Below, piece after piece: positions 915-58,523 of a DNA stretch of 64,000 bases (positions are counted from its first letter, which is position 1; the number at the start of each line of letters is the position of its first letter). The stretch covers positions 46,604 to 110,603 of the forward strand of contig NZ_CALKTT010000093.1 of NCBI RefSeq assembly GCF_937997535.1, in the 5' to 3' direction. The notes beneath the pieces were generated by a model. The model worked only from the letters and a program-made list of their open reading frames with translations, was not told where the DNA came from and made no database searches. The stretch comes from an uncultured Campylobacter sp. GTDB taxonomy: Bacteria; Campylobacterota; Campylobacteria; Campylobacterales; Campylobacteraceae. The position numbers were made by a program, and so were the translations under genes.

Positions 915-989
915 ACCCGGTGAAATTTTAAAATTTCACCCGTTGCGGGCGGCGAGACCGCTCATAGAACTGAATTTAAAGGAACGATC

Positions 990-1541
990 ATGCGAATACG
1001 ACTACCACACGTGCCATATATCGCGCATAAAATAGCGCTGGATCTGCTAAACTCGGGCTGCGTTACGCTGAGCGCGGGCATAGAGCCCGTCGCAAAGGAA
1101 GCGGACGAGATCATAAGGGCCGATCTGCAAAAAGAAAGAGCGATAGACGAGCGCGCGAATGAGCTGATAGATGAGCGCATAAGCGAGCTAGATGAGATGA
1201 GCGTGAATAAAAAAGATATGTTTTGGCTCATCAAGCGCCACATCGCAAACGACGAGAATTTCGAGCTAAATTTTGAGGATCGCTACGGCACCATATCGCA
1301 TAAAATTTTAGAAACCGTTTGGAAGAAAAATTTGATCGATTACAAAGTCTCGGAAAACAGGCTAAAGACGATAATTTATAACGCGATCGAGGAGTATTTG
1401 AAAAGCTACCAAAAGATCGAGGACGAGGTCTATGAAAAGATCGAGGGCTACAAACAAAAACTGATCCCTGGGACCGAAGAATACGAGCTTGTGTTTGAAA
1501 AGCTCTACGAAGAGGAACTAAGAAAACGGGGCATGCTGTAA
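990..1541 (+). CDS. DUF507-like conserved acidic helical protein
   Basis: 183-aa ORF with a charged helical sequence (MRIRLPHVPYIAHKIALDLL..). Its stop overlaps the carA start. Family assignment is from memory of epsilonproteobacterial DUF507 proteins. Confidence 0.6.
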   Translation: MRIRLPHVPYIAHKIALDLLNSGCVTLSAGIEPVAKEADEIIRADLQKERAIDERANELIDERISELDEMSVNKKDMFWLIKRHIANDENFELNFEDRYGTISHKILETVWKKNLIDYKVSENRLKTIIYNAIEEYLKSYQKIEDEVYEKIEGYKQKLIPGTEEYELVFEKLYEEELRKRGML

Positions 1542-2659
1542 TGAATGCGTATATCTACATAGAAAACGGCATCTATCTGCAAGCCAAGGCGTTCGGCAAG
1601 GGCGGCAGCGCATTCGGCGAGCTCGTGTTTAACACCTCCGCCACCGGCTACGAAGAGATCATCTCAGATCCTAGCTACGCGGGGCAGTTCATCATCTTTA
1701 CGATGCCCGAAATCGGCATCGTAGGCATCAACGAAAACGACAAGGAAAGCTCCAAAATCCATGCCAGCGGAATTTTCGTAAGAAATTTTAACAACGAGCC
1801 TTCAAATTTCCGCTCGCAGATGAGCTTGGAGGATTATTTTCTGCAAAACGGAAAATTCGGCGTTTACGACATCGACACTAGATTTTTAACCAAAATGCTG
1901 CGCGACGAGGGCAGTCTGCGCGCCTTCGTCTCTACCGAGATCAGCGATAAGGCGGCTCTTAAAAAGGCGCTTAGCGAGTCTGCGCGCATAGAGGAGATCA
2001 ACTACGTAAGCATCGTAAGCACGAAGGCGCCATATAAGCACACCTCCGGTCGCTGGGACGCCGCGCGCGGAAGCTACGCTCAGCCCGCAAGCTGCGGCAA
2101 AAAGATAGCCGTGATCGATTACGGCGTCAAGCGAAATATCCTAAACGAGCTTTGCGATCTGGGGCTCGGCGTCGAGGTTTTTCCGCATGACGTTAAAGCG
2201 GAGAGCTTGATCGCTAAATTTAAAGAGGGGCAGATCGATGGCGTGTTTTTATCAAACGGCCCGGGCGAGCCTCGCATGCTTAAAGAGGAGATCGCGCAGA
2301 TCAAAAAGATGGTCGAAGCGCGCGTGCCGATTTTTGGAATTTGTCTAGGTCATCAGCTGTTAAGCAACGCGATGGGATATGAGACCTACAAGCTGAAATT
2401 CGGCCAGCACGGCGCAAACCACCCCGTGCAAAACCTGCGCACCAAATCGATCGAGATCACCGCGCAAAACCACAACTACAACGTCCCAGAAACGATAGCG
2501 CAGATCTGCGAGATCACGCACCGCAATCTTTTCGACGGCACGATCGAGGGCGTGCGCTACAAAGACTATCCCGTATTTTCGGTGCAGCACCACCCCGAAG
2601 CCAGCGCGGGGCCAACAGAGAGCAAGTATATCTTCAAAGAATTTCTTGAAATTTTATGA
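1541..2659 (+). CDS. carA: carbamoyl-phosphate synthase small (glutamine amidotransferase) subunit
   Basis: CPSase small-subunit N domain plus class-I GATase motifs (PIFGICLGHQLL, SVQHHPEA). Confidence 0.95.
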   Translation: MNAYIYIENGIYLQAKAFGKGGSAFGELVFNTSATGYEEIISDPSYAGQFIIFTMPEIGIVGINENDKESSKIHASGIFVRNFNNEPSNFRSQMSLEDYFLQNGKFGVYDIDTRFLTKMLRDEGSLRAFVSTEISDKAALKKALSESARIEEINYVSIVSTKAPYKHTSGRWDAARGSYAQPASCGKKIAVIDYGVKRNILNELCDLGLGVEVFPHDVKAESLIAKFKEGQIDGVFLSNGPGEPRMLKEEIAQIKKMVEARVPIFGICLGHQLLSNAMGYETYKLKFGQHGANHPVQNLRTKSIEITAQNHNYNVPETIAQICEITHRNLFDGTIEGVRYKDYPVFSVQHHPEASAGPTESKYIFKEFLEIL

Positions 2660-2681
2660 TTTTTGAAATTTTGCCCGCATG

Positions 2682-2715
2682 AAATTTTACCGCGGCCCTG
2701 CGGTAAAATTTTAAA
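2682..2715 (+). terminator. hairpin downstream of carA
   Basis: 12-bp perfect stem aaattttaccgc / gcggtaaaattt with loop ggccct, followed by a T-rich stretch. Confidence 0.55.
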
Positions 2716-3504
2716 TTTACGGCAAGCTTTAAATTTTAATGTGGTCTTTGCGTCGTAAATTTAAAGCTCGTCGCAGCCTGGATAATTGCAGGCTGGAGCG
2801 GTACACAAAGCACGCTTTTACGGACTTAGGATTGTCGCGGCGATTTTGAATTAAGCGGTTTTTGGATGAAGCGATCTGTGCTAGTCGCAATTTTAAATTT
2901 AAACTGGCTGCGCGCCGCATGCTTTTTATTCGTTCGATTATGCGTTCACGTAAGCTTCTAAGTGTGCGCGGCTAAATTCCATGCACTTTAAAGATCAGGC
3001 TTAGAGCGCTTTGCCCTTTCAAAACAGATCCTGCGGTATATTTAGCATGACTTCAAGCCCTTTAAATTTGACGAACCATTTTGTTGCCGTTAAAAGTTAC
3101 GCTAGCAAGCTGCCTTGCCGTCCGTAAAATTTTATCTAACGCCGTTTACCTACTAAAACCTTATCAGCGCTGTTTCATTTCCCTCTAAAATATTTGCCTA
3201 AAATAAAATTCCGCTCCGCCGCGTAGTGAAATTTTACCTGCGCCAGCTTTGGAATTTTACTTTCAGCCGCTCTTAAATCTTTTTCGCACTGATAAGATTT
3301 AGCTCGCGTTACTTTAAATTTTTGCCCCATTCCTAGGCCGCGATTTTTATCCATGCTTCTTTTTTAATTCCGCCCATATTTGCACCTAAAATAAGAGTTG
3401 TGTTACTTTATGAAATTAAATTTTTAACTTAACATTATTTTAAGCTCAATAAAAGAGAAAATTTGAAAGAATTTCGTTTGAAATTTCGCCTTGAGGGGTC
3501 TGCT

Positions 3505-7375: not shown

Positions 7376-10280
7376 AAATTATCTGGCGCTTGAAGCAAGC
7401 GCAGGCAGCGGCAAGACCTTCAATCTCGCGGTCAGGTTCATCGAGCTGGTGCTAAAAGGCGAGCCGATCAACGAAATTTTAGCGCTTACCTTTACTAAAA
7501 AAGCGGCTGCTGAGATGAAAACGCGCATCGTGGAGAAATTTCAAAATTTGCTGCTTTTGCAGGATGGTTCGTTAAAGCCTAGCGCCGAGCTGGAGCAGAT
7601 TTGCGCTGATTTAGGGCTAAGCGCTGATGAGGTTTTGGCAGCGCAAGAGCGGCTGAGCCCAAAATTTTTAAGCGAGAGCCTAAATGTCTTTACTTTCGAT
7701 GCGTTTTTTGCAAAGGCTCTGCGCTCCTTTGCGCTAAATAGCGGCATTGATCCAAGCTTTGAAAACGATGAAGGGATTTTGGGTGTGCAGCAGGCAGCGT
7801 TTTTAGGCGCTATTTGTAAAAACGAAGCGCTATTAAGAGAGGTCGTGGACTACGTAAGCGACTCAGGAATGACAAAGGGTGAGTTTCTAAATAGCTTGCA
7901 AAGCATTTGGAGAGGCGATATAAGCATAAATCCGCCCACGCTTCCTGCAAGCTCCGCGCTAGCAGAGATAAATGAAATTTTATCCCACTTGCAAAAAGCG
8001 GCGAGAGATGCGGGCGTAAGCGCTGGAGCCGTAAATGGGCTAAGCCCTGTTAGCGATTTGTCAAAATTATCCTCTGGTTTCATTCTTTCGGCTCTTGCCA
8101 ACGGTAGTTTCGATTATCCGCGCTCACAGCTTAAAAAAATTTCGCATCTTGACGGCGAGCTAGCAAGGCTAAAAGACGCCATAGCTCGCGAAATAGCGTG
8201 GATGGATGCGACATATGCGGCTAAGCTGGCAGGACTAATTAAAATTTATGCCGAAGCGCTTAAATCGGTGCAGCGCAAAAGCGGCAAGCTCACGTTCGGT
8301 GATGTCACTGCAGCCGTGCACTCGCTGCTAAATCCAAGCGCAGAGGCGTTACAGGGCAACCGCGAGCTTTTGTATTTCAGGCTCGATTCTAAAATCACGC
8401 ATATTTTAATTGACGAATTCCAAGATACCGACATTTGCCAGTATGAAATTATGCTGCCGCTAATCTCTGAGGCGCTTGCTGGCAAAGGGGCGGAAGAGCG
8501 CTACGGCAGCTTTTTTTACGTAGGCGATAAAAAACAGAGCATCTATAAATTTCGCGGCGCAGAGAGAAAAATTTTTGATATTTTGCGCGAGCAGTTTAGT
8601 CAAATCAAAACGCAGAGCCTGCCGTGCAATTATCGCAGCTTAAAACTCATAGTAAAATTTGTAAATGAGATCTTGCGCGATAAATTTGCGTCTTATGAAG
8701 ATCAAATCGCAGCAAATAAGCTAGATAGCGATCTGCCCGCTTCGGTGCTACAAAAAATCAAGGACTATCCGCTTTCCCATCCGCAAATGCCGCTATTTGA
8801 GGTGCAAAGCGACGATTACGGCTACGTAGCGGCGTTTTCATACGACGATGTGCTAAAGGGGGCTGCGGAGCAAGCGCGCAGGCTTATTGAGGAGTGCGGC
8901 GTGAGAGCTGATGATATAGCGATTTTATGCTGGAAAAACGAGCATGTAAGCGCGCTAAAAGAGATGCTATCGGAATTTTGCGAGGTGTGTAGCGGCTCAA
9001 ATAAGGCTTTGCGTTGCAGTGAGCAGGTAAATGCCGTAATTCAATACGCGAAATTCTGCGTAGGTGGCGATGAAATTTATCTGCGAAACGCCGAAGCGAT
9101 TTTAGGGAGGCGGCTTAAAAAGATAGCGGTCGATCTGCATAAAAACGCGCAAAAAACGGCGGAATTTATCGCTAGCTCGCTGAAGCTAAATTTTGTCGAT
9201 CCGGATCTGTTGCTGTTTTTTGAGACGCTGGCAAAATTTAATAGTTTTAGCGAGTATCTGTTTGCAAACGACGAAACGGAGGTATTTGCCAAGGAACAAA
9301 GCGGCATTAAAATTATGACCGTGCATAAGTCTAAGGGGCTTCAGTTCCCGCACGTAATCGTCTGCGACCGCATCGGAGGAAAAGACCGGGGCGAGAGCTC
9401 AAAGCTCGCGACGGACTATGATTTCGCCACGCATAAGTGGAGAATTTTTTATAAATTTGCGAGCAGAAAGAGCCTGGATGCGGAATTTGCGGCGCTAATG
9501 GATGAAAACGATCGCTCTGCGCATGAAGAGGATATAAATAAGCTCTATGTGGCATTTACACGTGCCGAACGCTCGCTCATCATCGTAAAACGCTCCGAGA
9601 CAAAAATAGATCAATACAATTATAGCTTTTTTTCGCCTTACGCCAAAAAGACCAAGGGCGCGGGCGTCGTGGAGTGGCTGGATATCCCGGATTTTCAATA
9701 CGGCTACGTAATCCCAAGCTCCGTAAAATCAGAAGAGCAGCCGCCGCGCAAAAAGATCGCGCTCGTAGCGGGCGAGCCTCAAAGCGTGCAAGAAAAAGCA
9801 GCCAGCGGCGAAACGGAGGCACTAAGCGCGATATATTTCGGAGAGGCGCTGCACTATGCTCTGGAGATGAGCGAAGGATTTGCGGCGGATGAAATTTTGC
9901 GAGGAGTAAGCCTTGCTAGAGCTCAATACGATAAATTTTTAAACGATGCGGATTTTGAAAATATCGCGGCGCGGGCGCTAGGACTAAGCAAAAACGAGGA
10001 ATTTTTAGCTCTGATAAGAGGCGCTCAAGCTTATAAAGAGATGCCGATTAAAAGCGCGGAGGGTGATCTTTTGCGCGTGGATCTGGCGTGCTTTGGGCAG
10101 GATGAAATTTTGCTTTTTGATTACAAAAGCTCCGAAAAATACCTCGCGCAAAATAAGGCTCAAGTGGCGCGGTATAAAAGCGTAATCCGCGAGTTTTATC
10201 CGCATGTGCGAGTGCGTGCCTTCGTGCTGGTTCTCGAAGCTGCGGGCGCTAGGTTGATTGAAGTAAATGAGGAGGGATAA
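7362..10280 (+). CDS. addA: AddA-type UvrD-family helicase-nuclease
   Basis: Helicase motifs EASAGSGKTF, ILIDEFQDTD, TVHKSKGLQF and YVAFTRA. C-terminal RecB-like nuclease (DLACF..LLFDYKSS). The ATG at 7362 overlaps the addB end by 14 nt. Confidence 0.9.
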   Translation: MAKFENYLALEASAGSGKTFNLAVRFIELVLKGEPINEILALTFTKKAAAEMKTRIVEKFQNLLLLQDGSLKPSAELEQICADLGLSADEVLAAQERLSPKFLSESLNVFTFDAFFAKALRSFALNSGIDPSFENDEGILGVQQAAFLGAICKNEALLREVVDYVSDSGMTKGEFLNSLQSIWRGDISINPPTLPASSALAEINEILSHLQKAARDAGVSAGAVNGLSPVSDLSKLSSGFILSALANGSFDYPRSQLKKISHLDGELARLKDAIAREIAWMDATYAAKLAGLIKIYAEALKSVQRKSGKLTFGDVTAAVHSLLNPSAEALQGNRELLYFRLDSKITHILIDEFQDTDICQYEIMLPLISEALAGKGAEERYGSFFYVGDKKQSIYKFRGAERKIFDILREQFSQIKTQSLPCNYRSLKLIVKFVNEILRDKFASYEDQIAANKLDSDLPASVLQKIKDYPLSHPQMPLFEVQSDDYGYVAAFSYDDVLKGAAEQARRLIEECGVRADDIAILCWKNEHVSALKEMLSEFCEVCSGSNKALRCSEQVNAVIQYAKFCVGGDEIYLRNAEAILGRRLKKIAVDLHKNAQKTAEFIASSLKLNFVDPDLLLFFETLAKFNSFSEYLFANDETEVFAKEQSGIKIMTVHKSKGLQFPHVIVCDRIGGKDRGESSKLATDYDFATHKWRIFYKFASRKSLDAEFAALMDENDRSAHEEDINKLYVAFTRAERSLIIVKRSETKIDQYNYSFFSPYAKKTKGAGVVEWLDIPDFQYGYVIPSSVKSEEQPPRKKIALVAGEPQSVQEKAASGETEALSAIYFGEALHYALEMSEGFAADEILRGVSLARAQYDKFLNDADFENIAARALGLSKNEEFLALIRGAQAYKEMPIKSAEGDLLRVDLACFGQDEILLFDYKSSEKYLAQNKAQVARYKSVIREFYPHVRVRAFVLVLEAAGARLIEVNEEG

Positions 10281-10395
10281 AATTTTAAAATTTAAATAAA
10301 ATTTGAGCGCAGATAGATTAAAGATAGCTTAAATTAAGCTATACGTAAGGATATTTCTATATAATCACAGCTCAAATTTTAATAAGGCGGAAACC

Positions 10396-13460: not shown

Positions 13461-14376
13461 GCGTGACGGAGCGAAATTTTACCTAGTTTTGATGCGCTAT
13501 TTTTACAAATATTTAAGCGAATTCGCGCTCGAAATTTAAAATTTCCAATTAATTTTTGCGTTTTAAACAGCGCGCGATATAAAATTTGTCCGCGCTATTT
13601 AGCTGGGGAGCAAGGTGCTTTCTAGGTGTTCAAACGATAGGCGGAGTTAATTCCGCATATTTCTGCTCTGGTCTAGCAATAGCCTATGCCGTATCAACTA
13701 TGTATGAGAGATTTCACTCTGTTCGTCGTGCTTGATCTGATTTGTCGAATGTTCAGTATTAAAAATGCATGGGGAAATCTTGCCGCAGTCAAATTTTACG
13801 CAATTTCATAATGTCTTTTGAGCCCGTAAAGGGCTTTTGTAAGAAATTTTATGTGAGCTTCGCACTCAAATTTTGGCTTTGATTTTAGTTTAGACCCCGC
13901 CTAATCGCGATAAATTCTTATGCTTCGTCTGATGTGAGTATTTGGCGGACTTATTGCGCAACCTTGTCGTAAGCCTATTTGACGCTTATTTTGAGCGCCG
14001 TATTCGGGTTTTGTTGCAATTATGCTCGCTGCGGATTTTCGGTTTGATTTATAGCATTTAAGGCCGCGCCCGCCCAGCGAGCACTAAACATATATGTTTT
14101 GAAGACAGGCTTATATGCTAAAATTTTATCCTGCGACAAACAGCTCGCGAAGGCGTAAATATAGGATAAACTAGCCAAATTTTAAAATTTAGCTCCGCGG
14201 CGAGCAGCCATATTCTTTTATCGGAGCCTATGAAAGCAGCGTTAGCTTTTACGTTTTAATTTTATTGTTTAGGCGCAGCAGGGCTTTAAATTTAATTAAA
14301 ATTTTGCAAAATTTTAAAATTCCGCCCGCTCTTATGCTTTTTTAAAGCAAAATTCTATAAAATACCGCTTTCGCAA

Positions 14377-14450
14377 TGGGCTATCGTCTAATGGCAGGAC
14401 AACAAACTCTGGATTTGTGAATATAGGTTCGACCCCTATTAGCCCATCCA
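14377..14450 (+). tRNA. tRNA-Gln (anticodon CTG)
   Basis: Manual cloverleaf. Acceptor TGGGCTA/TAGCCCA (U1-A72), D arm GTCT-AATGGCA-GGAC, anticodon arm ACAAA-CTCTGGA-TTTGT, T arm ATAGG-TTCGACC-CCTAT, encoded CCA. Confidence 0.8.
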
Positions 14451-15078: not shown

Positions 15079-15237
15079 ATTTTACTCCAGTGATTAAAAG
15101 TCCTCGATTATACAATACGAATAGTAAATTTTTAAGAGTGAACCGTAGGATTTTAAGATTAGATTTGACGAAGCAGACCCGCTCGTAAGCCGAAATTTTA
15201 CGAAATTTTAAAATTTCGGCGTCGCGGATAAGCTTAG

Positions 15238-15681
15238 TTATAGGCACTGAGAGAGTGCTGATTTGATAGCGGATTTTGATACGTAGCCTTCCGAGTCGCT
15301 GGTAAGTGATACGTCGCAGCCCGGCTTATAGTTTTTCCAGGTGTAGATATTACCATTGTCTTCGGTTGTTTTGATGGAGTCTGGCTGTTTATTCCATGCA
15401 GAAATTACTTGATTGATATGAAATGCATCGCTGCGGTCTTTCGGCGCATTAGTCATACCTGTGCTATCGGGCAAGGTCGTTTCGACCATATCAGTGGTGC
15501 CTGCGGTGGAGACCTCTTGGACTTTATCATTTACGCCGCCGATATTTGTTTTGCTGCTTTGGGATTTTGTTTGATTGCGTACTCCGCTTGGTTCGTTGGA
15601 TATATTCCAGTTGGAACAACCGATAAAAAATACCGCTGCTATGAGCGCAGCTATTAAATTTCTCATAAAATTCTCCTTCAA
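15238..15681 (-). CDS. hypothetical lipoprotein
   Basis: Signal peptide with lipobox (AVFFIGC), then a Ser/Thr/Asn-rich mature part. No family recognised. Confidence 0.6.
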   Translation of the reverse strand: MKENFMRNLIAALIAAVFFIGCSNWNISNEPSGVRNQTKSQSSKTNIGGVNDKVQEVSTAGTTDMVETTLPDSTGMTNAPKDRSDAFHINQVISAWNKQPDSIKTTEDNGNIYTWKNYKPGCDVSLTSDSEGYVSKSAIKSALSQCL

Positions 15682-15886: not shown

Positions 15887-16195
15887 ATGTATGCTATCAT
15901 CAAACACGGCGGCAAGCAGTATAAGGTCGAAGAGGGTAACTACCTAAATTTAGACCATTTTAATGCAGAGCCGAAAGCAAAGCTCGAGCTTAGCGAAGTT
16001 TTAGCGCTAAACGACGGCGAGTTAAAGGTAGGAGCACCGTTTGTAAAGGGTGCCAAGGTGGTTTTGGAGGTCGTTTGCGAGGGCAAGGATAAAAAAGTCG
16101 TTATCTTCAAAAAACGCAGACGCAAAGATTCAAAAGTAAAACGCGGCTTCAGACGCCAATACACCCGTGTCAAAGTCGTTTCGATTAACGCATAA
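15887..16195 (+). CDS. rplU: 50S ribosomal protein L21
   Basis: [17 protein letters not shown].. is the canonical L21 N-terminus. The upstream part of the ORF is an AAATT-rich leader. Confidence 0.95.
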
Positions 16196-16205
16196 AGGAT
16201 AGGAA

Positions 16206-16463
16206 ATGGCACACAAAAAAGGTCAAGGCTCAACCCAAAATAATAGAGATAGTATCGGACGCCGCTTGGGCGTTAAAAAATTCGGCGGCGAGTTCGTTCG
16301 CGCGGGCAACATCATCATCCGCCAACGAGGCACTGCGACGCACCCGGGCTGCAACGTAGGCATGGGTAGTGATCACACGATTTTCGCGCTGATCGACGGC
16401 GTCGTAAAATTTGAGCGAAAAGATAAAAACCGCAAAAAAGTATCGGTTTATCCCGCTGCGTAA
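16206..16463 (+). CDS. rpmA: 50S ribosomal protein L27
   Basis: [21 protein letters not shown].. is the canonical L27 sequence. Confidence 0.97.
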
Positions 16464-16479
16464 TTACCGCTAAAATCTT

Positions 16480-16501
16480 CGGGGGCGCAAGCCCCTCTTT
16501 T
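16480..16501 (+). terminator. rho-independent terminator after rpmA
   Basis: GGGGC-GCAA-GCCCC hairpin followed by TCTTTT. Confidence 0.75.
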
Positions 16502-16573
16502 AAAATTTCATCCGTTTAAAAAATATCTTCAACTCATTTGGCTATAATTGCCGTTTTAAATTTAAGGATAGCT

Positions 16574-50132: not shown

Positions 50133-50794
50133 CTAGATATATTTGTAGCCAAGCTTGGAGGCGTTTATGATGCGATCTTTGCCTAAAATTTTTCGCAGCT
50201 CCGCGATATAAACGCGCAGGCTAAGCTCGCTCGGACTCTCGTCGTAGTCCCATAGCGCGGCGAAAATTTCATCTTTGCTAAGGAATTTATCGCGGTTTTT
50301 AGAAGCAGAGCAAGAAGCCGCGCCTGCTTCTGCGGCATCGGCACGGCTCTTCCGTCGCGATAAAGCGTGTGCTGAGCCATATCGAAGCTAAAACCTCCGC
50401 CGATATTTTCGCGCAGGGCGGCGTTGTGGACGAAGGTGCGCTTTAGTAGATTATCCGCGCGCAGAGCCAGCTCTTTTAGCTCGAAGGGCTTTTTGAGGTA
50501 GTCGTCGCAGCCGCCTCTAAAGCCGCTTTCGACGTCTTGCAGAGTGTTTAGCGACGTCGTGAAAATGCACGGTGCGCCGCGCCCGGCCTCGCGCAGCTCG
50601 CGAAGTAGCGCAAAGCCGTTGCCGCCGATGATTTTGACGTCGAAGATCCACAGATCGAAGCTCTTTTCGTATGCTAATGAAAGCGCCTCGTCGTAGCTTT
50701 TACTGCCGCTTACCTCGTGCCCCGCGCCGCGCATATAGGTGCACATCATATCTAGCAGCATCCCCTCGTCCTCGACGATCAAAACCCTTGCCAT
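50133..50794 (-). pseudogene. OmpR-family response regulator, frameshifted inside the DNA-binding domain
   Basis: Receiver domain is intact (VLIVEDE, IFDVKI, LKKPF). After ..ARLLALLLK the ORF (50183..50794) leaves the family frame. The frame given by one extra A reads NRDKFLSKDEIFAALWDYDESPSELSLRVYIAELRKILGKDRIINASKLGYKYI. Confidence 0.7.
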
Positions 50795-51254
50795 AGCCCG
50801 CCTCCTTGCGTAGAATTTTTGAAATTATACCTGTGAAATTCCACGTAAAATTTAATTGCAAAATTTCGCAGCAAAATTTTATCGTGGCGAAAACGGCGCG
50901 TCTTGGCTCTAAGGCACGCTTCGTAAATTTAGATTGCTCGCCTGGTAATTAATTTACGCAGTGAGCAAAGCGGCGCAAGAGGCTAAAATTTTACGATATA
51001 AAATTTTCGCGCCGCATAAATTTCAAGCTAAAATTCTAAAATTCTCGCACCGTATTTCGATAAAATAAAATTCTGCGCAAGTGCTGCGCGGAACTACGTA
51101 GCTTGCGCGCGGGCAGCTATTGCTGCGTCATAGGACACGGAGCGGCGCCCGCGTTTTGATTGCACGGCATCTCGCCTCTTGGCGGCATTGCCAGACCCGC
51201 GCCGCCGCCCATTCCTTTATGCGGCATATGGCCGCATTCGCCGGGAGCCACCTG

Positions 51255-51650
51255 CTATCTATGCGGACCAAACCCGTGAGCGGGCCTTTTAAATTTGCCG
51301 AAATTGCCGCGGTCTTTAAGCTCGATATCCAGCCTATCCGCCTGCTCAACGCTTAGCTTGCCCGCCTGGGCGTTATAGTTTTTTCTAAACTCGTCTAGGA
51401 ATTTCTCGCGATCCTCGACGCTCATAGCGTCCAGCTTCTTTTTAAACTCCGTCTTAAATCCGCGCTTGAGATCCCTTGCCTGCGCTCTTAGCTCGCCCGC
51501 GCGCTTATCGATCTCAAACGCCGCTTCGCTTAAGCTCTTGGCGTCCGCGCCGGCGACTGCGGCATTGATCTGCTCGGGGCTGCTTGAGCTAAAATCTGCG
51601 GCGAACAGCACGCCCGCGACTAAAACGCTTGCTAAAACAATCTTTTTCAT
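51255..51650 (-). CDS. periplasmic helical protein (possibly DUF1104-like)
   Basis: AGGAGAGAG RBS, signal peptide MKKIVLASVLVAGVLFA, charged helical body. Family assignment is tentative. Confidence 0.6.
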   Translation of the reverse strand: MKKIVLASVLVAGVLFAADFSSSSPEQINAAVAGADAKSLSEAAFEIDKRAGELRAQARDLKRGFKTEFKKKLDAMSVEDREKFLDEFRKNYNAQAGKLSVEQADRLDIELKDRGNFGKFKRPAHGFGPHR

Positions 51651-52041
51651 TCTCTCTCCTTTGTGAAAGTTAGCGTGATTGTAGGAAAAAGTCGTGAAGA
51701 AAAAGTTAAATGAAGCTCGCGCTGCCAAAATAGCTCGGCGCCGTAAATTTAGAACTTTGATTAAATTTGGAAAATTTTGCGATGCTGCTGCGGCAAAAAC
51801 AGAGCGTAATGCGCGCAAACGGAGTTAAAATTTTAAAATTTAAGCGGGAGAGGGGTGCTGCGCGTAAATTTAACATAAATTTTGCGCTGCATAGATTATA
51901 TTAAAGCCCGCCATGCGTAAATTTAACGACAAAGCGGGCGTATCTCGGCGCTGCGAACGGCGAAATTTCATCGCGTAAATTTAACCGCAGAGCGGACATA
52001 CTTAGAGATTGCGGATGATTAAATTTCATCCGCAACGAGGC

Positions 52042-52587
52042 TTATTTTATAACGCCGCAGACCATTCTAGCGCCGCCGCCGCCGAGCGGTTTCGGATGAT
52101 CGCTGTGGTTATCGCCGCCTACGTGAACCATCAGCGAGTGGCCCTTTAGCTCATCTAAGCTCTTGATCTTCGGAGCCAGCACCGGATAGACCGCATTGCC
52201 CTCAGCATCGACGAAAAGTGCAGGCAGATCGCCCTTGTGGCCGCTATCGTCCCAAGCAAACGAGTGCTTTTTGGTATCGCTCGGATCCCAGTGACCGCCA
52301 GCTTTCATGCCTAAGCCCTTCTCGGTAGCGCCGCAGTCAGCGTTTTGATGCACGTGAAAGCCGTGCACGCCGCTAGCAAGACCCTTTAAATTTGGAAAGA
52401 ACGCCACGCCGTAGTTCGTCTCGACCGCTACGACCTCGCCGACGGTTACGTTGCCCTTCTCGCCCAGCTGCTCCATAGTGATGACGAGGTGCTTGCCAGA
52501 CTTAGGGTCGAAATTTTGCATATCGCCGTGTTCGTGAGCGATCAAGGCGCTTGCGACTAAAATTGATGAAATTAGAAATTTCTTCAT
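52042..52587 (-). CDS. sodC: periplasmic Cu/Zn superoxide dismutase
   Basis: Signal peptide and Cu/Zn-SOD signatures: [29 protein letters not shown]. Confidence 0.93.
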
Positions 52588-52652
52588 GAAAAATCCTTTA
52601 AAGTAAAATGCGAGTGCAATTTTATCCAAAAATACTTAAAAAATAATTTTTC

Positions 52653-53321
52653 TTATTTAGATAAATTTTGCTTTTTATCTAAAAGGCTTATCGCGAAGAA
52701 TAAGATCAAGCTGAAAATTACGAGCAAAACGCTTAAAATCAGCGCCCGCTCGTTCTCTCCGTCATACACGGCGCCCATGATCGCAAGGCCTAACGTGTCG
52801 GTTTTGCCCACGATGTTTCCGCCCAACATCAGCGTGATACCCACTTCGCCAAGCCCGCGCGAGAGCGCTAAAATAAGCGCGGAGCCGAGTGTTTTAAGCG
52901 AGCTTGGAAGGATTACGAAGAGGAAAATTTGAGCTCTGTTTTTGCCCAAAATTTGCGCGGCTTCGATTAGGCTCTTCGGAAAGAGCTCAAAGCTCGCACA
53001 CACGGGCTTTACAAACAGCGGCAGCCCCACCAAAAATGCGGCGATTACCAATGAAGAAAAGTTAAAAACGATGTCTAAATTTAACGCAGAACCGATAAAT
53101 CCGCTCTTTCCGAAGATGTAAAGAAGCAGAAATCCCGTCGCGATCGGCGGGAAGATGAGCGGAAAAATTACCAAAATTTCGACGATCTTTTTAAATTTGG
53201 CTTTGCTGAAAGCCAAAAAATACGCAATTGCCAGCCCTATTGAAATCAGCAGCAAAAAGCTGCAAAATAGGGCTTTGACGCTTAGAAGCAAAGGATGCGC
53301 GATCCAAGCTATGTCGCTCAT
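52653..53321 (-). CDS. modB: molybdate ABC transporter permease
   Basis: Multi-TM protein with EAA loop (LIEAAQILGKNRAQIF). Overlaps the modA stop. Confidence 0.85.
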   Translation of the reverse strand: MSDIAWIAHPLLLSVKALFCSFLLLISIGLAIAYFLAFSKAKFKKIVEILVIFPLIFPPIATGFLLLYIFGKSGFIGSALNLDIVFNFSSLVIAAFLVGLPLFVKPVCASFELFPKSLIEAAQILGKNRAQIFLFVILPSSLKTLGSALILALSRGLGEVGITLMLGGNIVGKTDTLGLAIMGAVYDGENERALILSVLLVIFSLILFFAISLLDKKQNLSK

Positions 53322-54019
53322 TTAAGGCCGAATTTTGAAAAAATCTCTTTTGAGCGATCCGATTGAAATTCCTTCATCACCTTTTCGCAAAGCGCCTGCT
53401 CGCTGCACGCGCTTAGTCTTGCAATGCCGATATATGCGGGGCTGTAGAGGCTCTCGTCGATGTAGATTATCGAGCCGAACTCATCTTTTTTGGCGACCGC
53501 TTCGGTGCTGTTGATAAAGCCTGCTTGCACCTCGCCGTTGATGACGTATGCGACCACCTGCGGCACGCCCGCGACGGCTAAAATTTTATCTTTTACCCCA
53601 TCCATCTTGGCGTTTTGTAAAAACTCGTTCGTTCTGATACCGTAAATCGCCTTTTTAGGATCTGGCATCGCGATTTTATCGAACTTTGCGATCCCCGATA
53701 CGCCCTGTATTTTGATATTTTTCGGCGTTACTAAAACTAGTGTGCCGCGGCCGATACGCTCAAATTTAGTGATATTTAGATCGCTTTTTTTCAAAAACGC
53801 CTCGTCGCCCACGATGAATGAAATTTTATTCTCGCGCGATTGAATGACGAGCTGGCCGAGGTTGGCAAACGATCCCGCCACGTCCATGCCCTCTTTTTTC
53901 AAATTTTCGATCACGGCCGAGACGGGCTTTTTGTATCCGCCGCCGGCCGCGATTATCAGCTGATCCGCGCAAAACGAAACGCTTGCCGTAAGCGCTAAAA
54001 TAAAAGCAATTTTTTTCAT
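53318..54019 (-). CDS. modA: molybdate/tungstate-binding periplasmic protein
   Basis: Signal peptide plus ModA-like sequence (IIAAGGGYKKP.., GDEAF.., IAMPDPKKAIYG). Confidence 0.8.
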   Translation of the reverse strand: MKKIAFILALTASVSFCADQLIIAAGGGYKKPVSAVIENLKKEGMDVAGSFANLGQLVIQSRENKISFIVGDEAFLKKSDLNITKFERIGRGTLVLVTPKNIKIQGVSGIAKFDKIAMPDPKKAIYGIRTNEFLQNAKMDGVKDKILAVAGVPQVVAYVINGEVQAGFINSTEAVAKKDEFGSIIYIDESLYSPAYIGIARLSACSEQALCEKVMKEFQSDRSKEIFSKFGLK

Positions 54020-54136
54020 GAAAATCCTTTTTTTTGAAATTTTAAGAATTTTACAAAATATACTCTTATTTATTAATAAATCGCGTTTTTATGCCCTGTT
54101 TTAGACTTTTATGTCTTAAAATTTAAAATTTAATAT

Positions 54137-54988
54137 TTAGATAAGCTCTATCTTTCCGCCCAGATCGCACGCGCCCTGATTCCAAACCGCCGAGCTTACG
54201 AGCACGTCCGCGCCGGTAGCCGCAAACTCTGCGCAGTTATTTTTATTTATACCGCCAGCGGCGCAAATTTTAATCTGCGGCGCCGTCTCATCTCGTCTCA
54301 AAACGCAGGCTCTAAGCTCGCCAGCGCTCATCTTATCGCACATTATCGCATCCGGTGCATAACCTAAAAGCTCGCTAAATTCGCGCTCACTCGCCACTTC
54401 GATCATTATCTTTCGCTCGGGCGCGCGCTCTTTAAATTTAGCGATCTGCGCGCAAAACTCGCTAAAACTCGCAAACGCGCGGATATGGTTTGAAAAAAAC
54501 AAGATGCTGTCGTGCAGCCCCAGGCGGTGCATGCTCCCGCCGCCCGCAATCAGCGCATTTACGCAAAGCTCCTTCGCAAAAGGAAGGCTCTTGCGCGTCG
54601 CACCCAGCACGCAGCGCGGATTCGCCTCTCGCATCAGCGCAACCATCTCGTGTGCGTAAGTAGAAATTTTGCAGGAGTACTCAAACACGATCTGAACGAT
54701 CTTCCAAGCCTTATGGAGGCTCTCGAAGCTCCCTCGCGCGCTAAAAATTTCATCCCCTGCGCTAAATGCGCTTCCCTCGCGCGCTAGATGCTGCGTCTCG
54801 CAACCAAAGCGCGCCGCTACTTCGCGCGCTATTCCTCCGCCGCTAAAGATCAGATCCTGCCTCGTTACGATCGAAAGCCGCGCGGGCGCGTTTAAATCCA
54901 CGAAGTCCTGTAAAAGCTCGGTCGTAAGGTCCAAAAACGCGCCGTCGCTAGCGATTAGATCGTCGATTTTACTCTGTGAAATAAACAT
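54137..54988 (-). CDS. modD: NadC/ModD-family phosphoribosyltransferase, likely ModD
   Basis: Quinolinate-PRTase-like fold (..ATRKSLPF.., GGGSMHRLGL..). Location beside modAB favours ModD over NadC. Confidence 0.65.
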   Translation of the reverse strand: MFISQSKIDDLIASDGAFLDLTTELLQDFVDLNAPARLSIVTRQDLIFSGGGIAREVAARFGCETQHLAREGSAFSAGDEIFSARGSFESLHKAWKIVQIVFEYSCKISTYAHEMVALMREANPRCVLGATRKSLPFAKELCVNALIAGGGSMHRLGLHDSILFFSNHIRAFASFSEFCAQIAKFKERAPERKIMIEVASEREFSELLGYAPDAIMCDKMSAGELRACVLRRDETAPQIKICAAGGINKNNCAEFAATGADVLVSSAVWNQGACDLGGKIELI

Positions 54989-54990
54989 AT

Positions 54991-55488
54991 CTAGCCTACG
55001 AAGTGAATTTTAGCGGGCTCAAAACGTGAATGCGCCTTTGTGACGCGAGACGGAAAGCCCAAAGGCATAATGCAAAACGCCTCTAAATGCCCAGGCAGAT
55101 CCAAAATTTCTCTTACGCGCTCCATCGCGTAAATATCGGGCGCTACGCCCAGCCACGTGGTGCCAAGCCCCAAATGGTGCGCCGCCAGCCAAAGATTTTC
55201 TGCCGCACAAGCGCAGTCGTAGCGAGCGTAGGGCTGGAATTTTAAGCCGCTTTTGCGCGTGCAGACCACGATCGCAAGCGGCGCATCTTTCGTGCAGCCG
55301 CCGTAGGTGCCGACGCTGCTAAGTAGCGTAAGCGTGGTGCGGTCGCGTACTACGTAAAATTCCCATGAGCGCTGGTTGCCCGCACTAGGGGCTTGCATCG
55401 CGGCTTTTAGCACAAGCTCGATCTGATCGTCGCTCGGCATTTTTCCGGTAAAATTCCGCACGCTCGTGCGTGTAAAAATTTCATTCAT
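54991..55488 (-). CDS. nitroreductase-family protein
   Basis: RTSVRNF..., AAMQAPSAGNQRSWEF, typical nitroreductase fold signatures. Confidence 0.85.
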   Translation of the reverse strand: MNEIFTRTSVRNFTGKMPSDDQIELVLKAAMQAPSAGNQRSWEFYVVRDRTTLTLLSSVGTYGGCTKDAPLAIVVCTRKSGLKFQPYARYDCACAAENLWLAAHHLGLGTTWLGVAPDIYAMERVREILDLPGHLEAFCIMPLGFPSRVTKAHSRFEPAKIHFVG

Positions 55489-55499
55489 CGCTGCTCCTT

Positions 55500-56160
55500 T
55501 AAATTAAATTTCTAAATTCCGCTTTTTGCGAGCGGTAAAAAATGGAATTTAGAAGTAAGCTTGCCGCTGCGTTTGCTTGAGCCCTGCTTACACTTTACGC
55601 TTAGTCGCTACGCGGCGACCGATGCGCGCTAATTTGGTTTTGCTTGCCTGAGCGCGCCTTTTCTTGCATCAAAAAGCGCAAAGTCGCGATAAAATTTCAA
55701 ATCGCGCTGCTATGAAAATTCGCCGCAAAGAACATTTGCGTAAACTTGGCTTGCTTAAATTTCGCTCACGAGCAAGCTTGCGATCCGCCTATTTAGATTT
55801 TTAATCCTAGGCTTGCTATATGCGCTTGTTAAAACTGCGCGCCGTATACATTGACCTACGTGCGTAGCTTGCGTGGTCCTTAAATTTCATCTCGCGCCGA
55901 GCCTGTGCTGGTCTTTGCGGATAAAATTTTATCCTTCGCAGCAATGAAATTTCACCTTTGCGCCGAGTAAATTTTATCTTCGTCGCTAGGTAAAATTCCG
56001 CTTTCGCCGCTTTTGAATTTTAACCGCATGCGCGTCCGCAAAGCACTTGCCGCGCCGTACCGCATACAAAGCGCGCTCAGATCAAAAGCTCAAAATATCT
56101 AAAATTTAACCTCAAAGCCCGATTAGCCGGAGCCGCACGCCGAAACGCTATGAAATTTAA
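55500..56160. repeat. AAATT-box array
   Basis: ORF-free 0.66 kb with repeated units such as ataaaattttatccttcgc, atgaaatttcacctttgcgc, gtaaattttatcttcgtcgc. Confidence 0.6.
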
Positions 56161-56163
56161 GCG

Positions 56164-56832
56164 TTAAACCTGCTCGCCTATCAGCCTGCGCACGACGTAG
56201 CTTGCGATGAAAAGCCCGAAGCTCGCGGTCACGCCCATGAAGCTACCCATCGATTTGACGCGCGGCGGCTCGCTCGAGCAGACGACGTCAAAATCGCCCG
56301 CAAAGCCGCGCTTTCGCAGCTCATATCTGATCTTGCGCGCGAGCGGATCGCCTTGCGTCTGCCAGATTGATCGGATTTTGATTTTAGCGGGATCGAGCCT
56401 CTTTGCGCTGCCCATCGAGCTTATGAAGCCCGCGCCCGCCTCGCTGCAGCGTAGCGCAAGAGCGATCTTGGCGCTCACGTCGTCTATCGCGTCGATTACG
56501 AAATCAAATTTGCCGAGGTCGAATTCCGACAAAAATTCCTCATCGATCCTGGCGGCGATCGGCGTCACGCCTTTAAATTTGCGCGCGAAAACCTCGCATT
56601 TTAGCTCGCCTACGTGTTCGCTTCCAAGCTGGCGGTTTTGATTGGTTATCTCGAAGCGATCGCAATCGATCACGCTTAGATTCACCGCGCCGCTGCGGTA
56701 CAGCGCCTCTATCGCCGCTCCGCCCACGCCGCCGCAGCCGCAGATTAAAATTTTAGCGCTTTGCAGCCTTGCAAAATCCTCGCCGAAAAGCAGGCGCGAG
56801 CGCGAAAAGCGGTCTACTACGACCTCACTCAT
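56164..56832 (-). CDS. tcdA: ThiF/MoeB/HesA-family enzyme, TcdA-like tRNA t6A dehydratase
   Basis: ILICGCGGVGG nucleotide-binding loop. The ~220-aa size and sequence fit TcdA/CsdL. Confidence 0.75.
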   Translation of the reverse strand: MSEVVVDRFSRSRLLFGEDFARLQSAKILICGCGGVGGAAIEALYRSGAVNLSVIDCDRFEITNQNRQLGSEHVGELKCEVFARKFKGVTPIAARIDEEFLSEFDLGKFDFVIDAIDDVSAKIALALRCSEAGAGFISSMGSAKRLDPAKIKIRSIWQTQGDPLARKIRYELRKRGFAGDFDVVCSSEPPRVKSMGSFMGVTASFGLFIASYVVRRLIGEQV

Positions 56833-57604
56833 CGTTTTTCATCCACCTTTCTAGCGCGCTCATCTGCTCGTGCGCGGTTAAATTTAGCTTGATCGGACTT
56901 AATGTCGCTCGCCCCTCAAACAGCACCGAAATATCGCTGTTTTCGTTCCTGCTCGCATCAAAACTGAGCGTAGATTTGCCGAGCCAATAATACTCTATTC
57001 CGCGCGGATTGCGGTTTAGCTGCGCGTCGGTATCGTAGAGCTTCTCGCCGCAGGGCGCAACCGAAAGCCCCTTAAAATCCTGCTTTGAGACGGCAGGGAC
57101 GTTTAAATTTAAAAACTGCTTCGGCGGCAGAGGAAAGCCTTTTTTAAAGATTTTCTCGACCAATTCCACCGCGAGCTCGCACGCTAGATCAAATCCGTAT
57201 CGCTGCAGCGAGTCCGCGACGTAAAACTGGCTCACCGCAAGCGCAGGAATGCCTTGTAAAACCCCCTCCATCGCGCCTCCGCACGTGCCCGAATAGGTCA
57301 CGTCCTCCGCGACGTTGGCGCCGTGATTTATGCCGCTTATCACCAGATCGGGCTTGTGGTTATACAGCGCGCGGAGTGCCAAATACACGCAGTCTGCGGG
57401 CGTAGCGTCATCTAGTTTGAAAAATCCGTCGTCAAGCTTGATAAATCTAAGCGGACGCGTAAGAGTGAGTGAGTGCGAGCAGGCCGATTTCTCCGAGCTC
57501 GGCGCTACGATAGTGACGTTTGCGACCCCTCTTAGCGCGCTTGCGAGCTCTAAAAGCCCGCGCGCTTCGAATCCGTCGTCGTTGGTGATTAAAATTTCTT
57601 TCAT
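56825..57604 (-). CDS. surE: 5'/3'-nucleotidase SurE
   Basis: MKEILITNDDGFEARG.., ISGINHGAN. Confidence 0.93.
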   Translation of the reverse strand: MKEILITNDDGFEARGLLELASALRGVANVTIVAPSSEKSACSHSLTLTRPLRFIKLDDGFFKLDDATPADCVYLALRALYNHKPDLVISGINHGANVAEDVTYSGTCGGAMEGVLQGIPALAVSQFYVADSLQRYGFDLACELAVELVEKIFKKGFPLPPKQFLNLNVPAVSKQDFKGLSVAPCGEKLYDTDAQLNRNPRGIEYYWLGKSTLSFDASRNENSDISVLFEGRATLSPIKLNLTAHEQMSALERWMKNDE

Positions 57605-57609
57605 ATTCT

Positions 57610-58020
57610 CTCTTTAGCTAAAATTTCATGACAGACCTATCAGAGCGGAATTCTGTCTGTAAAATTTTAGCGCTTAATTCTTTACTATGCAAAAATTGCT
57701 ATTTAGCTTGCGTGGCATAAAATTCCGTCGCGCCAAATTTTTCAATAAAATTCCATGCGAACTTAAATCGCAAAATTCATAGAAAAATTCCGCTTTTTTG
57801 CTACGAAATTTTATCTTTTTTCGCTACAAATTTTTATAGCTTTTTATAGCCTGCTACGTAATTTCATCGCCTAAATTTCGCTTTCGAAATTCCTTAAATT
57901 TGGTGGTCGCACTCCGCAACTCGCCGCAAAATTTGTCTTTTAAATTATCGTAAAATTTTACACCACGAAATTTTGCTTTCGCGCCGATGCAAATCCGCGG
58001 CATAAAATTACGCTAGACTT
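57610..58020. repeat. AAATT-box array
   Basis: ORF-free 0.4 kb with at least 15 (a)aaatt(t/c)(c/t) boxes. Confidence 0.6.
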
Positions 58021-58022
58021 AT

Positions 58023-58523
58023 CTATAACCCTGCTTTGCGGCATATCTCCTCGCTTACCTGCGAATCAAGTAGGTGCGAGCTTGGATAATCGTAGAAAAA
58101 TCGGTGCACTTCACGCACTCCGCTTCGCAATAAAGCTCGCGTACTAGGTGCGTTGCAGTCATTTTCGGTAATATCCTTGGCTAGCAATTTGAGATATTTT
58201 TGCCGATCGGAGTTTTTCAGGCTCGCCCAGCCGGGGCTTAGCGAGTAGGCATAGATCAGATCGCTTCCTTGTGCGCTAATTTCTTCGAGGAAGGCAAACT
58301 GCGCGACCTTAACGTGGGGCTTGGTGCCGCCTACGTCCGCTGCGATCTCGCTAGCTGCGGCTTTAGCGACGAGTGCGGGCGAGCCTAACTTACTAAGCGC
58401 CTCAAAACGCGCTGTTACTGCGGGATCCTCGGTGACTTGACGCTTTTGGTATTTAGCCGCGCCGCAACCGCCTAGCAACATCACGAACGCGCCGCATAGC
58501 GCTAAAATTTTAAAATTTCTCAT
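58023..58523 (-). CDS. hypothetical lipoprotein
   Basis: Signal peptide with lipobox LLGGC. No family recognised. Confidence 0.6.
   Translation of the reverse strand: MRNFKILALCGAFVMLLGGCGAAKYQKRQVTEDPAVTARFEALSKLGSPALVAKAAASEIAADVGGTKPHVKVAQFAFLEEISAQGSDLIYAYSLSPGWASLKNSDRQKYLKLLAKDITENDCNAPSTRALLRSGVREVHRFFYDYPSSHLLDSQVSEEICRKAGL

Follow-up and report, generated by a model that had tools for sequence, protein, structure and literature searches.

An AT-rich palindrome repeated in a Campylobacter genome fragment is largely derived from an enriched RAATTY word, a candidate self tag for DNA uptake

Introduction

Several species of Campylobacter methylate adenine within the short palindromic word RAATTY. 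The genome of C. jejuni F38011 (1.69 Mb) contains 28,058 RAATTY motifs, counted on both strands, of which 99.7% carry N6-methyladenine (m6A) (PMC4335053); from these counts we computed a density of 8.3 sites per kb and an observed/expected ratio (O/E) of ~2.3. The motif occurs 24,750 times in C. fetus, where it is under-represented in prophages (PMC13436318), and its methylation is described in C. lari (PMC12679398) and also reported for C. hyointestinalis. Methylated RAATTY is described as required for DNA uptake by C. jejuni (PMC8468864; bioRxiv 10.1101/2024.09.10.611283), and these same two sources cite Beauchamp et al. 2017 for RAATTY m6A methylation by CtsM (Cj0208, of the M.CjeI type) as the self-signal for that uptake. 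Here we describe a 64,000-nt stretch of DNA from an uncultured Campylobacter (contig NZ_CALKTT010000093.1, positions 46,604 to 110,603; hereafter the window), in which RAATTY, and above all AAATTT, is strongly over-represented and a perfect 14-bp palindrome, AAATTTTAAAATTT (hereafter the 14-mer), is repeated many times.

The word enriched in the window resembles the C. jejuni tag in coming from the same genus, in being palindromic and obeying RAATTY, in occurring in both coding and noncoding DNA, and in its density (8.3 per kb in C. jejuni, 10.6 per kb here). It differs in that the lineage of the window has a G+C content of 47% and over-represents RAATTY ~9-fold and AAATTT ~20-fold, as against ~2.3-fold in C. 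jejuni, and in that this lineage adds a strong skew towards AAATTT and a preference for T/A flanks (AAATTTTA), which together yield the 14-mer. The DNA uptake sequences (DUS) of Neisseriaceae, with their lineage ‘dialects’, and the uptake signal sequences (USS) of Pasteurellaceae are likewise over-represented words found between genes and, irrespective of frame, within them, with variants between lineages; moreover, some of their inverted pairs form hairpins just after genes, as do the structure at 15190-15221 of the window and an alternative allele downstream of purA. However, DUS and USS are non-palindromic 9-12-mers present at ~1 per kb and read by a pilin or receptor without methylation, whereas the core word here is a 6-bp palindrome at ~7-10 per kb (3.4 per kb for its 8-mer extension), and the methyl mark would be the signal if it acts as in C. 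jejuni. HIP1 (GCGATCGC) of cyanobacteria is another short palindrome, repeated to great excess in every frame. Conserved methyltransferases have their target within it and a methylation-dependent rise in transformation efficiency has been reported, whereas a methyltransferase link for the word in the window would be carried over from other Campylobacter species. HIP1 is also unrelated in sequence and phylum, being an 8-mer at ~1 per kb of debated function. Lastly, 2-3 copies of the 14-mer sit in GC-clamped hairpins immediately downstream of genes, recalling Rho-independent terminators or repetitive extragenic palindromes, but most copies have no stable stem, U-tract or extended consensus and some are intragenic. 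In the literature searched we found no report of RAATTY over-representation scaling with G+C content, of the AAATTTTA extension or of the 14-mer, the exact sequence of which appeared only in two papers on unrelated matters.

We find that a pressure acting at the DNA level keeps RAATTY, and especially AAATTT with T/A flanks, dense in the lineage of the window, and that the 14-mer follows from it. By analogy with other Campylobacter species we read the excess, with a probability of roughly 55%, as a lineage ‘dialect’ of the methylated RAATTY self tag for natural transformation, which would be the source of the 14-mers.

Results

Enrichment of AAATTT and RAATTY

The window contains 452 AAATTT sites where ~21 are expected from composition, an excess of ~20-fold. 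Its longer forms are also frequent: AAATTTT/AAAATTT occurs 368 times, the 8-mer AAATTTTA/TAAAATTT 217 times (2.9 expected) and the 10-mer TAAAATTTTA 34 times. RAATTY as a whole has 681 sites, or one per 94 bp. The initial annotation had noted that AAATTT, the half of the palindrome, fits RAATTY; the 14-mer indeed consists of two AAATTT sites, and the rule extends well past it, given that 681 of the 832 AATT cores (82%, against 25% expected) have a purine on the 5′ side and a pyrimidine on the 3′ side. The four RAATTY words are AAATTT (452), GAATTT (111), AAATTC (96) and GAATTC (22), while every other NAATTN word is found 42 times or fewer (AAATTA 42, TAATTT 25, CAATTT 18, AAATTG 10, CAATTG 3). 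Other A/T hexamers, such as AATATT (18), ATTAAT (9) and TATATA (8), do not exceed expectation. When RAATTY was masked, no further word of comparable enrichment was found in the window. In the masked sequence the 8-mer GCGAGCTT/AAGCTCGC ranks first, with 34 copies (18-fold over composition), a count that probably stems from codon pairing, GCG and AGC being the dominant codons for Ala and Ser.

AAATTT is present throughout the window at 4-24 sites per 2 kb, and is 3.4 times denser between genes (17.4 per kb) than within them (5.1 per kb); some spacers carry a RAATTY-like word about every 21 bp. The 66 genes nevertheless hold 275 AAATTT sites, distributed over the three phases as 78/116/81. Shuffling codon order in these genes gave 49.8±5.9 sites (phases 36/6/7.5) and shuffling synonymous codons within each protein gave 89.7±6.5. 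A codon-usage artefact is thereby ruled out, as the excess is independent of frame and exceeds both shuffles. The + strand carries 113 copies of AAATTTTA and 104 of TAAAATTT; there is no strand bias, and a polar sequence akin to Chi or the FtsK-orienting polar sequences (KOPS) is therefore rejected. Stop codons directly overlap a RAATTY word in 9 of the 66 genes, ~2 times the noncoding background (TAAATTT, TAAAATTT, TAGAATTT, TGAAATTT).

AAATTT could also be a structural A3T3 element, whose narrow minor groove and bend serve nucleoid packing or promoter architecture, with the 14-mers and the tandem arrays described below acting as phased bends; sigma-70 promoters of Campylobacter have no -35 box. 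The higher density between genes and the prevalence of AAATTT over TTTAAA (452 against 149) agree with such a role, as do the peaks at 23-24 bp in the spacing of noncoding RAATTY pairs, the tandem arrays adjoining promoters, and the hexamer TAAAAT, which resembles a -10 box and is found on both strands at the centre of the 14-mer. However, bending does not predict the dependence on flanking purine and pyrimidine (GAATTT 111 against CAATTT 18; AAATTC 96 against AAATTG 10), and the enrichment has no counterpart of its size in AAAAAA/TTTTTT or the remaining A/T hexamers. Spacing peaks only at 8 and 23-24 bp, with no 10-11-bp periodicity, the excess is equally clear within genes and in all phases, and most of the compared loci of Helicobacter, Arcobacter and Sulfurovum have no such excess. 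We therefore consider a structural role quite unlikely.

The 14-mer as an overlap of two 8-mers

The 14-mer has 14 exact copies in the window. All 13 starts reported in the initial annotation are exact and one more lies within argC (60574-60587); the one-mismatch variants placed near 14309, 19307 and 36571 are likewise among the 24 sites that match with at most one mismatch. Dinucleotide-preserving shuffles (n = 100) contained on average 0.02 exact copies and 0.34 copies at one mismatch or fewer, and none of the 100 reached the observed counts. Hence the view that the repeat is not an effect of composition stands for base and dinucleotide composition, but Markov models trained on the window expect 0.0005 copies at order 0, 1.5 at order 5 and 3.6 at order 7. 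When the 14-mer is treated as a junction of AAATTTTA and TAAAATTT sharing TA, 3.9 copies are expected in noncoding DNA against 12 observed (P = 7e-4; three of these 12 sit in one tandem-array region, so that their independence is doubtful) and 0.96 in coding DNA against 2 observed. As the expectation climbs with Markov order and again under the junction model, most of the excess is inherited from shorter words, although a ~3-fold residue (~4-5 copies expected) persists once the 8-mer counts are allowed for. Agreement with a higher-order Markov expectation, which the initial annotation had named as grounds for setting the repeat aside, is thus reached in the window for the greater part but not entirely. 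The 14-mer is thus mostly not an element of its own but two copies of AAATTTTA/TAAAATTT overlapping on their terminal TA. Whereas it had first been taken as the unit, it is the overlap of a far commoner word.

Identity between the surroundings of different copies ends 2-3 nt past the 14-mer. The copies are therefore independent occurrences and not parts of one duplicated segment, an explanation that had been held open at the outset. Of the 14, ten lie between genes, another two run across stop codons (addA and a ttcA-like gene) and the last two are coding (a lipoprotein gene and argC), gene context being taken from open reading frames (ORFs) and family searches. The description of the repeat as almost always noncoding is accordingly true of the majority, while its association with stop codons is borne out by the addA and ttcA-like copies and, at 9 nt past the stop, by that of purA.

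AAATTT pairs show a sharp preference for a distance of 8 bp, with 17 pairs (TA between the hexamers in 14 of them) against ~4-5 at adjacent distances and none at 6 bp. This peak, the perfect symmetry of the 14-mer and the noncoding excess (12 against 3.9) would suit an operator, either the 14-mer or the 10-mer TAAAATTTTA, for a dimeric DNA-binding protein (a global regulator, for instance, or a nucleoid-associated protein) that recognises two AAATTT half-sites 8 bp apart. The clusters and 23-24-bp arrays upstream of genes, and conservation in 47 of 56 comparisons at 6-7% divergence, point the same way. That conservation is, however, what two conserved AAATTT hexamers would give. Moreover, the distance of copies from starts, stops and -10 boxes is not fixed, with positions ranging from intragenic to 340 nt upstream of starts, and two are ordinary coding sequence; the sites at 923, 10280 and 19307 often have alleles that differ by 1-2 substitutions, and at about one per 4.6 kb the copies would be densely spread for a regulator, for which no candidate protein was identified. 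An operator is in our judgement unlikely.

Distribution among Campylobacter and related genera

Relatives were compared over a syntenic 21-kb locus (rplU-atp-tol/pal-ttcA). The set of loci comprises the matches listed from an AtpD scan of a genome collection, a haphazard sample of taxa, together with named homologues and exact-protein look-ups. The sequence of the window is also found, without any difference, as a contig from a human oral metagenome. Its AtpD goes under the NCBI name ‘uncultured Campylobacter sp.’; among named relatives, the nearest by this protein are unclassified Campylobacter spp. at 97%, followed by C. hominis at 95%. At the DNA level the window is 93.8% identical to a syntenic contig of GCA_000175875.1 (ACYG01). 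We take this assembly to be C. gracilis RM3268 and hence call the lineage of the window C. gracilis-like.

Among the matches listed, RAATTY is found at ~5-12 per kb in 12 Campylobacter loci spanning 32-47% G+C. Densities are 9.3 per kb in the window (46.5% G+C over the syntenic locus), 9.0-9.2 in two sister genomospecies, L004 and L005 (~46.5%), 8.3-8.6 in L007 and L008 (44%), 8.2-8.5 in C. concisus (37-39%), 12.1 in L085 (36%) and 11.2 in C. hominis (33%), with lower values in C. hyointestinalis (5.4) and L006 (4.9). RAATTY makes up 0.81 of NAATTN in the window and 0.60 in C. hominis. By comparison, ~40 loci from Helicobacter, Arcobacter, Sulfurovum, Sulfurimonas and more distant taxa mostly have an O/E of ~0.5-1.7 and a fraction of 0.2-0.5. 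Density is thus roughly constant within Campylobacter while O/E goes from ~2 to ~9 as G+C rises, and it is this near-equal density at 47% G+C that amounts to an over-representation of ~9-fold for RAATTY and ~20-fold for AAATTT.

The preference for T/A flanks is narrower in its distribution. Following AAATTT in the window lineage, T is found at position +1 in 41-43% of cases and A at +2 in 50-55%, and the TA fraction of AAATTT flanks is 0.52-0.56 against 0.14 expected. TA flanks are weakly enriched in C. hominis (0.35 against 0.23 expected), and the preference was not found in the loci of C. concisus, L007/L008, L085 or C. hyointestinalis. Since it is confined to the C. gracilis-like lineage, the 14-mer appears only there among the loci compared: 18 loci of this lineage had 2-7 copies per 20 kb, and no compared locus outside it had any (including ~105 kb of C. 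concisus).

Retention and turnover of sites

RAATTY density is only slightly lower in the window (9.3 per kb) than in C. hominis (11.2 per kb), while non-RAATTY AATT words fell by ~70%, to near the expectation from composition. Of the RAATTY sites in C. hominis, 45% align with RAATTY in the window, against a corresponding 14% for its non-RAATTY AATT words. Similarly, 55% of AAATTT sites coincide with those of L007/L008, against 24-27% for control A/T hexamers. However, for 44% of the aligned RAATTY sites of the window C. hominis has none at the same place, and turnover has thus accompanied survival.

Substitutions at shorter range were taken from alignments of window positions 396-20821, 15894-35841 and 49828-64000 with relatives. 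A three-taxon comparison found AAATTT kept in both relatives at 90.9% of sites, against 76.6% for other A/T-only hexamers; the corresponding loss count (5 against 22 expected) is overstated, as conditioning on invariant hexamers lowers the rates of all A/T-rich words. An enlarged test on 25 terminal branches, its expectation calibrated on control words, put the observed/expected rate of change at 0.39 for AAATTT and 0.29 for GAATTY, compared with 0.59 for NAATTN words other than RAATTY, 0.49 for hexamers of A and T alone that fall outside RAATTY, and 0.84 for hexamers overall. We do not claim purifying selection specific to AAATTT at short range, and the short-range data do not separate active maintenance from the slow decay of a protected relic. 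The firm results are the frame-independent excess, the purine/pyrimidine rule and the differential retention at long range.

The same terminal branches show that recent third-position substitutions are AT-biased (1193 from G/C to A/T against 483 in reverse), which would imply an equilibrium G+C content at third codon positions (GC3) of ~0.32, compared with an actual 0.53. A fixation bias favouring G+C must therefore act on the window lineage. This makes room for a passive relic: as G+C rose from ~32% to 47% under such a bias, methylated RAATTY, or AT words generally, would have been exempt or slower to change, and neither these words nor the 14-mers built from them would have a present function. 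The small fall in RAATTY density beside the ~70% fall in other AATT words is as this explanation expects, and so are the low number of gains (9 against ~14 expected), the larger number of losses (30) on terminal branches, and the nearly equal retention of other A/T-only hexamers (0.49 against 0.39). Turnover at 44% of aligned sites does not fit it, nor does a synonymous choice that leans, according to context, towards AAATTT (275 against 90), nor a preference for TA flanks that is derived within the C. gracilis-like lineage. Furthermore, we know of no mechanism that shields m6A sites from substitution. We think a relic improbable.

Behaviour of the 14-mer between close relatives

The suggestion that orthologous intergenic regions be compared between strains was followed, and the copies proved to differ by point substitution or by short indels of local extent. 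At 93-94% identity to the window, relatives carry the exact 14-mer at the orthologous position in 47 of 56 copy-by-genome comparisons. Exceptions consist of 1-2 substitutions (10280, 14177), a 1-bp shift of register (51828) or replacement by another hairpin (923), and conversely near-copies in the window at 19307 and 51030 are exact 14-mers in other relatives. The idea of a miniature mobile repeat, for which dispersed and numerous intergenic copies and a varying copy number in the array at 36.3-36.7 kb might speak, fares badly here. Flanks are not conserved past the 2-3 nt noted above, there are no terminal repeats or target duplications, and presence or absence among relatives comes about by point substitution at orthologous positions. 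The variation in the array is local gain and loss of tandem units and does not look like transposition. We give a mobile origin next to no credence.

Hairpins at gene ends

RNA folding identified only two structures that clearly beat shuffled sequences, together with a weaker third. Both had been proposed in the initial annotation as extensions of the motif into longer hairpins, and both are present. The first (919-940, + strand), 3′ of purA, is a GC-clamped hairpin of the form ggtg-14mer-cacc (-9.8 kcal/mol, z -2.7; -11.7 kcal/mol in the comparison of alleles), and encloses the 14-mer at 923-936, which is kept in four of eight relatives. The other four have a different hairpin: an alternative allele, GGCGGAATTTTAA-gaatt-TTAAAATTCCGCC, found in L088, L090, L092 and L094 (window 900-960), is longer and folds at -23.8 kcal/mol. 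These alleles differ in both stem and clamp, so the structure is kept at this site while its sequence is replaced. The second (15190-15221, - strand) is an inverted pair of 8-mers with a GC clamp and an 8-nt loop (gccgAAATTTTA-cgaaattt-TAAAATTTcggc), 17 nt downstream of the stop codon of a gene at 15238-15681 (-). It folds at -14.5 kcal/mol (z -2.8; -14.6 on the mRNA-sense strand) and is conserved in nine of nine sequences, apart from a loop change in two and a stem change in one; the exact 14-mer at 15203-15216, kept in eight of eight relatives, supplies part of the loop and the right arm. The weaker structure surrounds the 14-mer at 39023-39036, between divergent genes (38446-38916 on the - strand and thiL on the + strand), and is moderate (-11.2 kcal/mol, z -1.5). 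For the remaining 11 copies out of 14 the folding energies, -0.3 to -5.4 kcal/mol (z > -1.1), are no better than those of shuffles, because a stem of A and U only is too weak.

Intrinsic termination, with the 14-mer as its core, would account for the three copies that touch or follow stop codons, for the two stable structures (919-940 and 15190-15221) just downstream of genes, and for the purA structure kept with another sequence in some strains. It leaves aside the 11 copies that fold no better than shuffles, those that lie in promoter regions or within the sequence encoding a signal peptide or argC, and the lack of a U run beyond the motif at any copy. Moreover, both strong hairpins adjoin gene ends but owe their stability to GC clamps and not to the 14-mer. 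As a general explanation this is very improbable, and the proposal of a terminator core survives for the 2-3 GC-clamped copies alone, which are probably local co-options as terminators or stabilisers of mRNA ends.

Positions of the remaining copies and tandem arrays

The copy at 10280-10293 begins on the last base of the TAA of addA (10278-10280), which encodes a RecB-like helicase, and four of eight relatives carry AAATTTTAAAGCTT in its place. The tRNA-Gln gene (14377-14450) is the only RNA gene found in the window by Rfam and ARAGORN, and the 0.9-kb gap upstream of it holds both the exact copy at 14177-14190, kept by seven of eight relatives with a variant ending ATAT in the eighth, and the one-mismatch variant AAATTTTAAAATTC at 14309-14322, identical in all eight. 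Another one-mismatch variant, AAATTTTAAAATCT (19307-19320), lies inside a coding region and is an exact 14-mer in two relatives. At 35817-35830 the ttcA-like gene ends within the palindrome, its stop codon being the central TAA (35823-35825); L004 and L005 have an identical copy. The copies at 48466-48479 and 48527-48540, 61 bp apart, occupy a 0.9-kb gap between convergent genes, where the only ORF to overlap the former is one of 105 aa that matched no family. The site at 51828-51841, ~10-40 nt upstream of the start of a DUF1104 gene and ~200 nt downstream of sodC, has a 14-mer in eight of eight relatives, shifted by 1 bp in some. Within genes, the copy at 58505-58518 (-) specifies residues 2-6 (RNFKIL) in the signal peptide of a lipoprotein, and that at 60574-60587 (+) lies in argC; both are identical in eight of eight relatives.

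Short tandem arrays with periods of 18-26 bp and a RAATTY word in each unit are found in three promoter-proximal spacers, and the number of units in such arrays varies between genomospecies. The first region (36303-36623), upstream of an aldehyde dehydrogenase gene, has degenerate arrays with periods of 23-26 bp and RAATTY-bearing units that vary in number among the window, L004 and L005. It contains the exact copies at 36352-36365 (a one-mismatch form in L005; an insertion with further copies in L004) and 36547-36560 (identical in both), together with near-copies at 36500 and 36571. A further exact copy (36734-36747), which precedes the start codon of the aldehyde dehydrogenase gene by 130 nt, is identical in L004 and L005 even though the adjoining GC-rich sequence varies. 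The second array (42317-42444) lies in a divergent promoter region and has units of 21 and 18 bp, each with TAAAATTTTA or AAATTTTG. The third (57793-57850) has units of 22-23 bp with AAATTTT, within a 420-bp intergenic region that carries ~20 RAATTY-like words.

Other features of the window and its relatives

Between the ttcA-like gene and the arrays lies a GC-rich stretch of ~400 bp without ORFs (35880-36290), which is ~80% conserved with indels in L004 and L005 and contains degenerate repeats of ~40 bp (CTTCTGCGTCYGA...AGAGTGGTTA). Neither this stretch nor the region 35800-36900 matched an Rfam family at E≤1; either a decayed gene or an unknown small RNA could lie in the stretch. At the 3′ end of an FKBP-type gene (32781-33431), a 36-bp repeat (3.3 copies, 33306-33423) encodes a tail rich in His, Asp, Glu and Cys, like the metal-binding tail of SlyD. 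The thiL ORF (39368-40843) encodes 491 aa, compared with a profile of ~273-320 aa, matches the profile in two stretches and holds a 30-bp repeat (3.1 copies, 40348-40438), which suggests an inserted repetitive segment. One relative (L101, ~15370-15390) has a G15 homopolymer directly upstream of a TATAAT box, before a strain-specific island of two genes (one encoding a PDDEXK_4 protein), an arrangement that looks from its sequence like a phase-variable promoter. Finally, addA is called as two ORFs (479 and 497 aa) in GCA_000175875.1 (L092, 6966-9885) and as one 972-aa gene in other strains; the split could be a frameshift or a sequencing error.

Discussion

RAATTY sites in the window lineage would be methylated, as in C. 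jejuni, C. coli, C. lari, C. fetus and C. hyointestinalis, by an orphan adenine methyltransferase of the conserved CtsM/M.CjeI type. The methylated sites would mark DNA as self for uptake during natural transformation, as they do in C. jejuni, and uptake bias, selection or both would then keep RAATTY dense. The preference for T/A flanks would be a lineage-specific ‘dialect’ of the signal, arising, speculatively, from a changed preference of the methyltransferase or receptor. The 14-mers would be double sites, perhaps favoured as such, which is again speculative, that accumulate where sequence is least constrained, with a few GC-clamped copies just after genes additionally forming hairpins. Methylation and uptake had been among the functions first proposed for the palindrome; the purine/pyrimidine flanks, the independence of frame and the sharing of the pattern within Campylobacter only all favour them, although both processes would themselves be carried over from other species. 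A gene for a PilT/PilU-family type IV pilus ATPase, which starts at 63761 at the end of the window (TIGR01420, 423 bits; complete in L096, 13933-15150), bears circumstantially on whether the lineage has a DNA-uptake machine.

Several observations weigh against a self tag. One methylated site is said to suffice for uptake in C. jejuni, which fits poorly with one site per 94 bp. No methyltransferase gene was found by NCBIfam and Pfam among the 66 ORFs of the 64-kb window, a search that used no CtsM query and did not extend to the rest of the genome; no competence gene was found among the same ORFs with the same databases. On terminal branches the difference in retention between AAATTT (0.39) and other A/T-only hexamers (0.49) is not significant (P = 0.13), and AAATTT gains are not elevated (9 against ~14 expected) while losses (30) exceed them. 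Strain-specific insertions of low G+C content bear AAATTT at the same density, and so do not help to tell self from foreign DNA. Furthermore, a pure reader of RAATTY would not predict the strong skew towards AAATTT (452:207:22 for AAATTT, the two mixed words and GAATTC, against ~1:1.8:0.8 by composition), and independent sites do not account for the ~3-fold residue of 14-mers, the sharp peak at 8 bp or the complete absence of pairs at 6 bp.

A more specific version of the self tag, closer to DUS, would address the 8-mer and 14-mer directly: AAATTTTA and the 14-mer would form a dialect in which the receptor or methyltransferase of this clade prefers T/A flanks, the 8-bp double sites would be high-affinity hot spots of uptake, and some would have been co-opted as hairpins. 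By analogy with DUS this is conceivable, and we put it forward tentatively, as doubtful in its full form.

The 14-mer is largely derivative and the genus-wide RAATTY pattern is the more valuable lead. For annotation, AT-rich palindromes of this kind should not be called terminators, operators or mobile repeats here without further evidence. If the link to self recognition is true, the tag would have been maintained against a large compositional shift, would constrain codon choice and would evolve lineage-specific flanks. It would also provide a marker, readable from sequence alone, of which Campylobacter lineages exchange DNA, and the natural single, double and hairpin sites would form a testable set for uptake experiments. 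Should the dialect reading be true, the constant density of RAATTY from 32 to 47% G+C would be the first quantitative evidence of an epigenetic uptake tag shaping composition across a genus.

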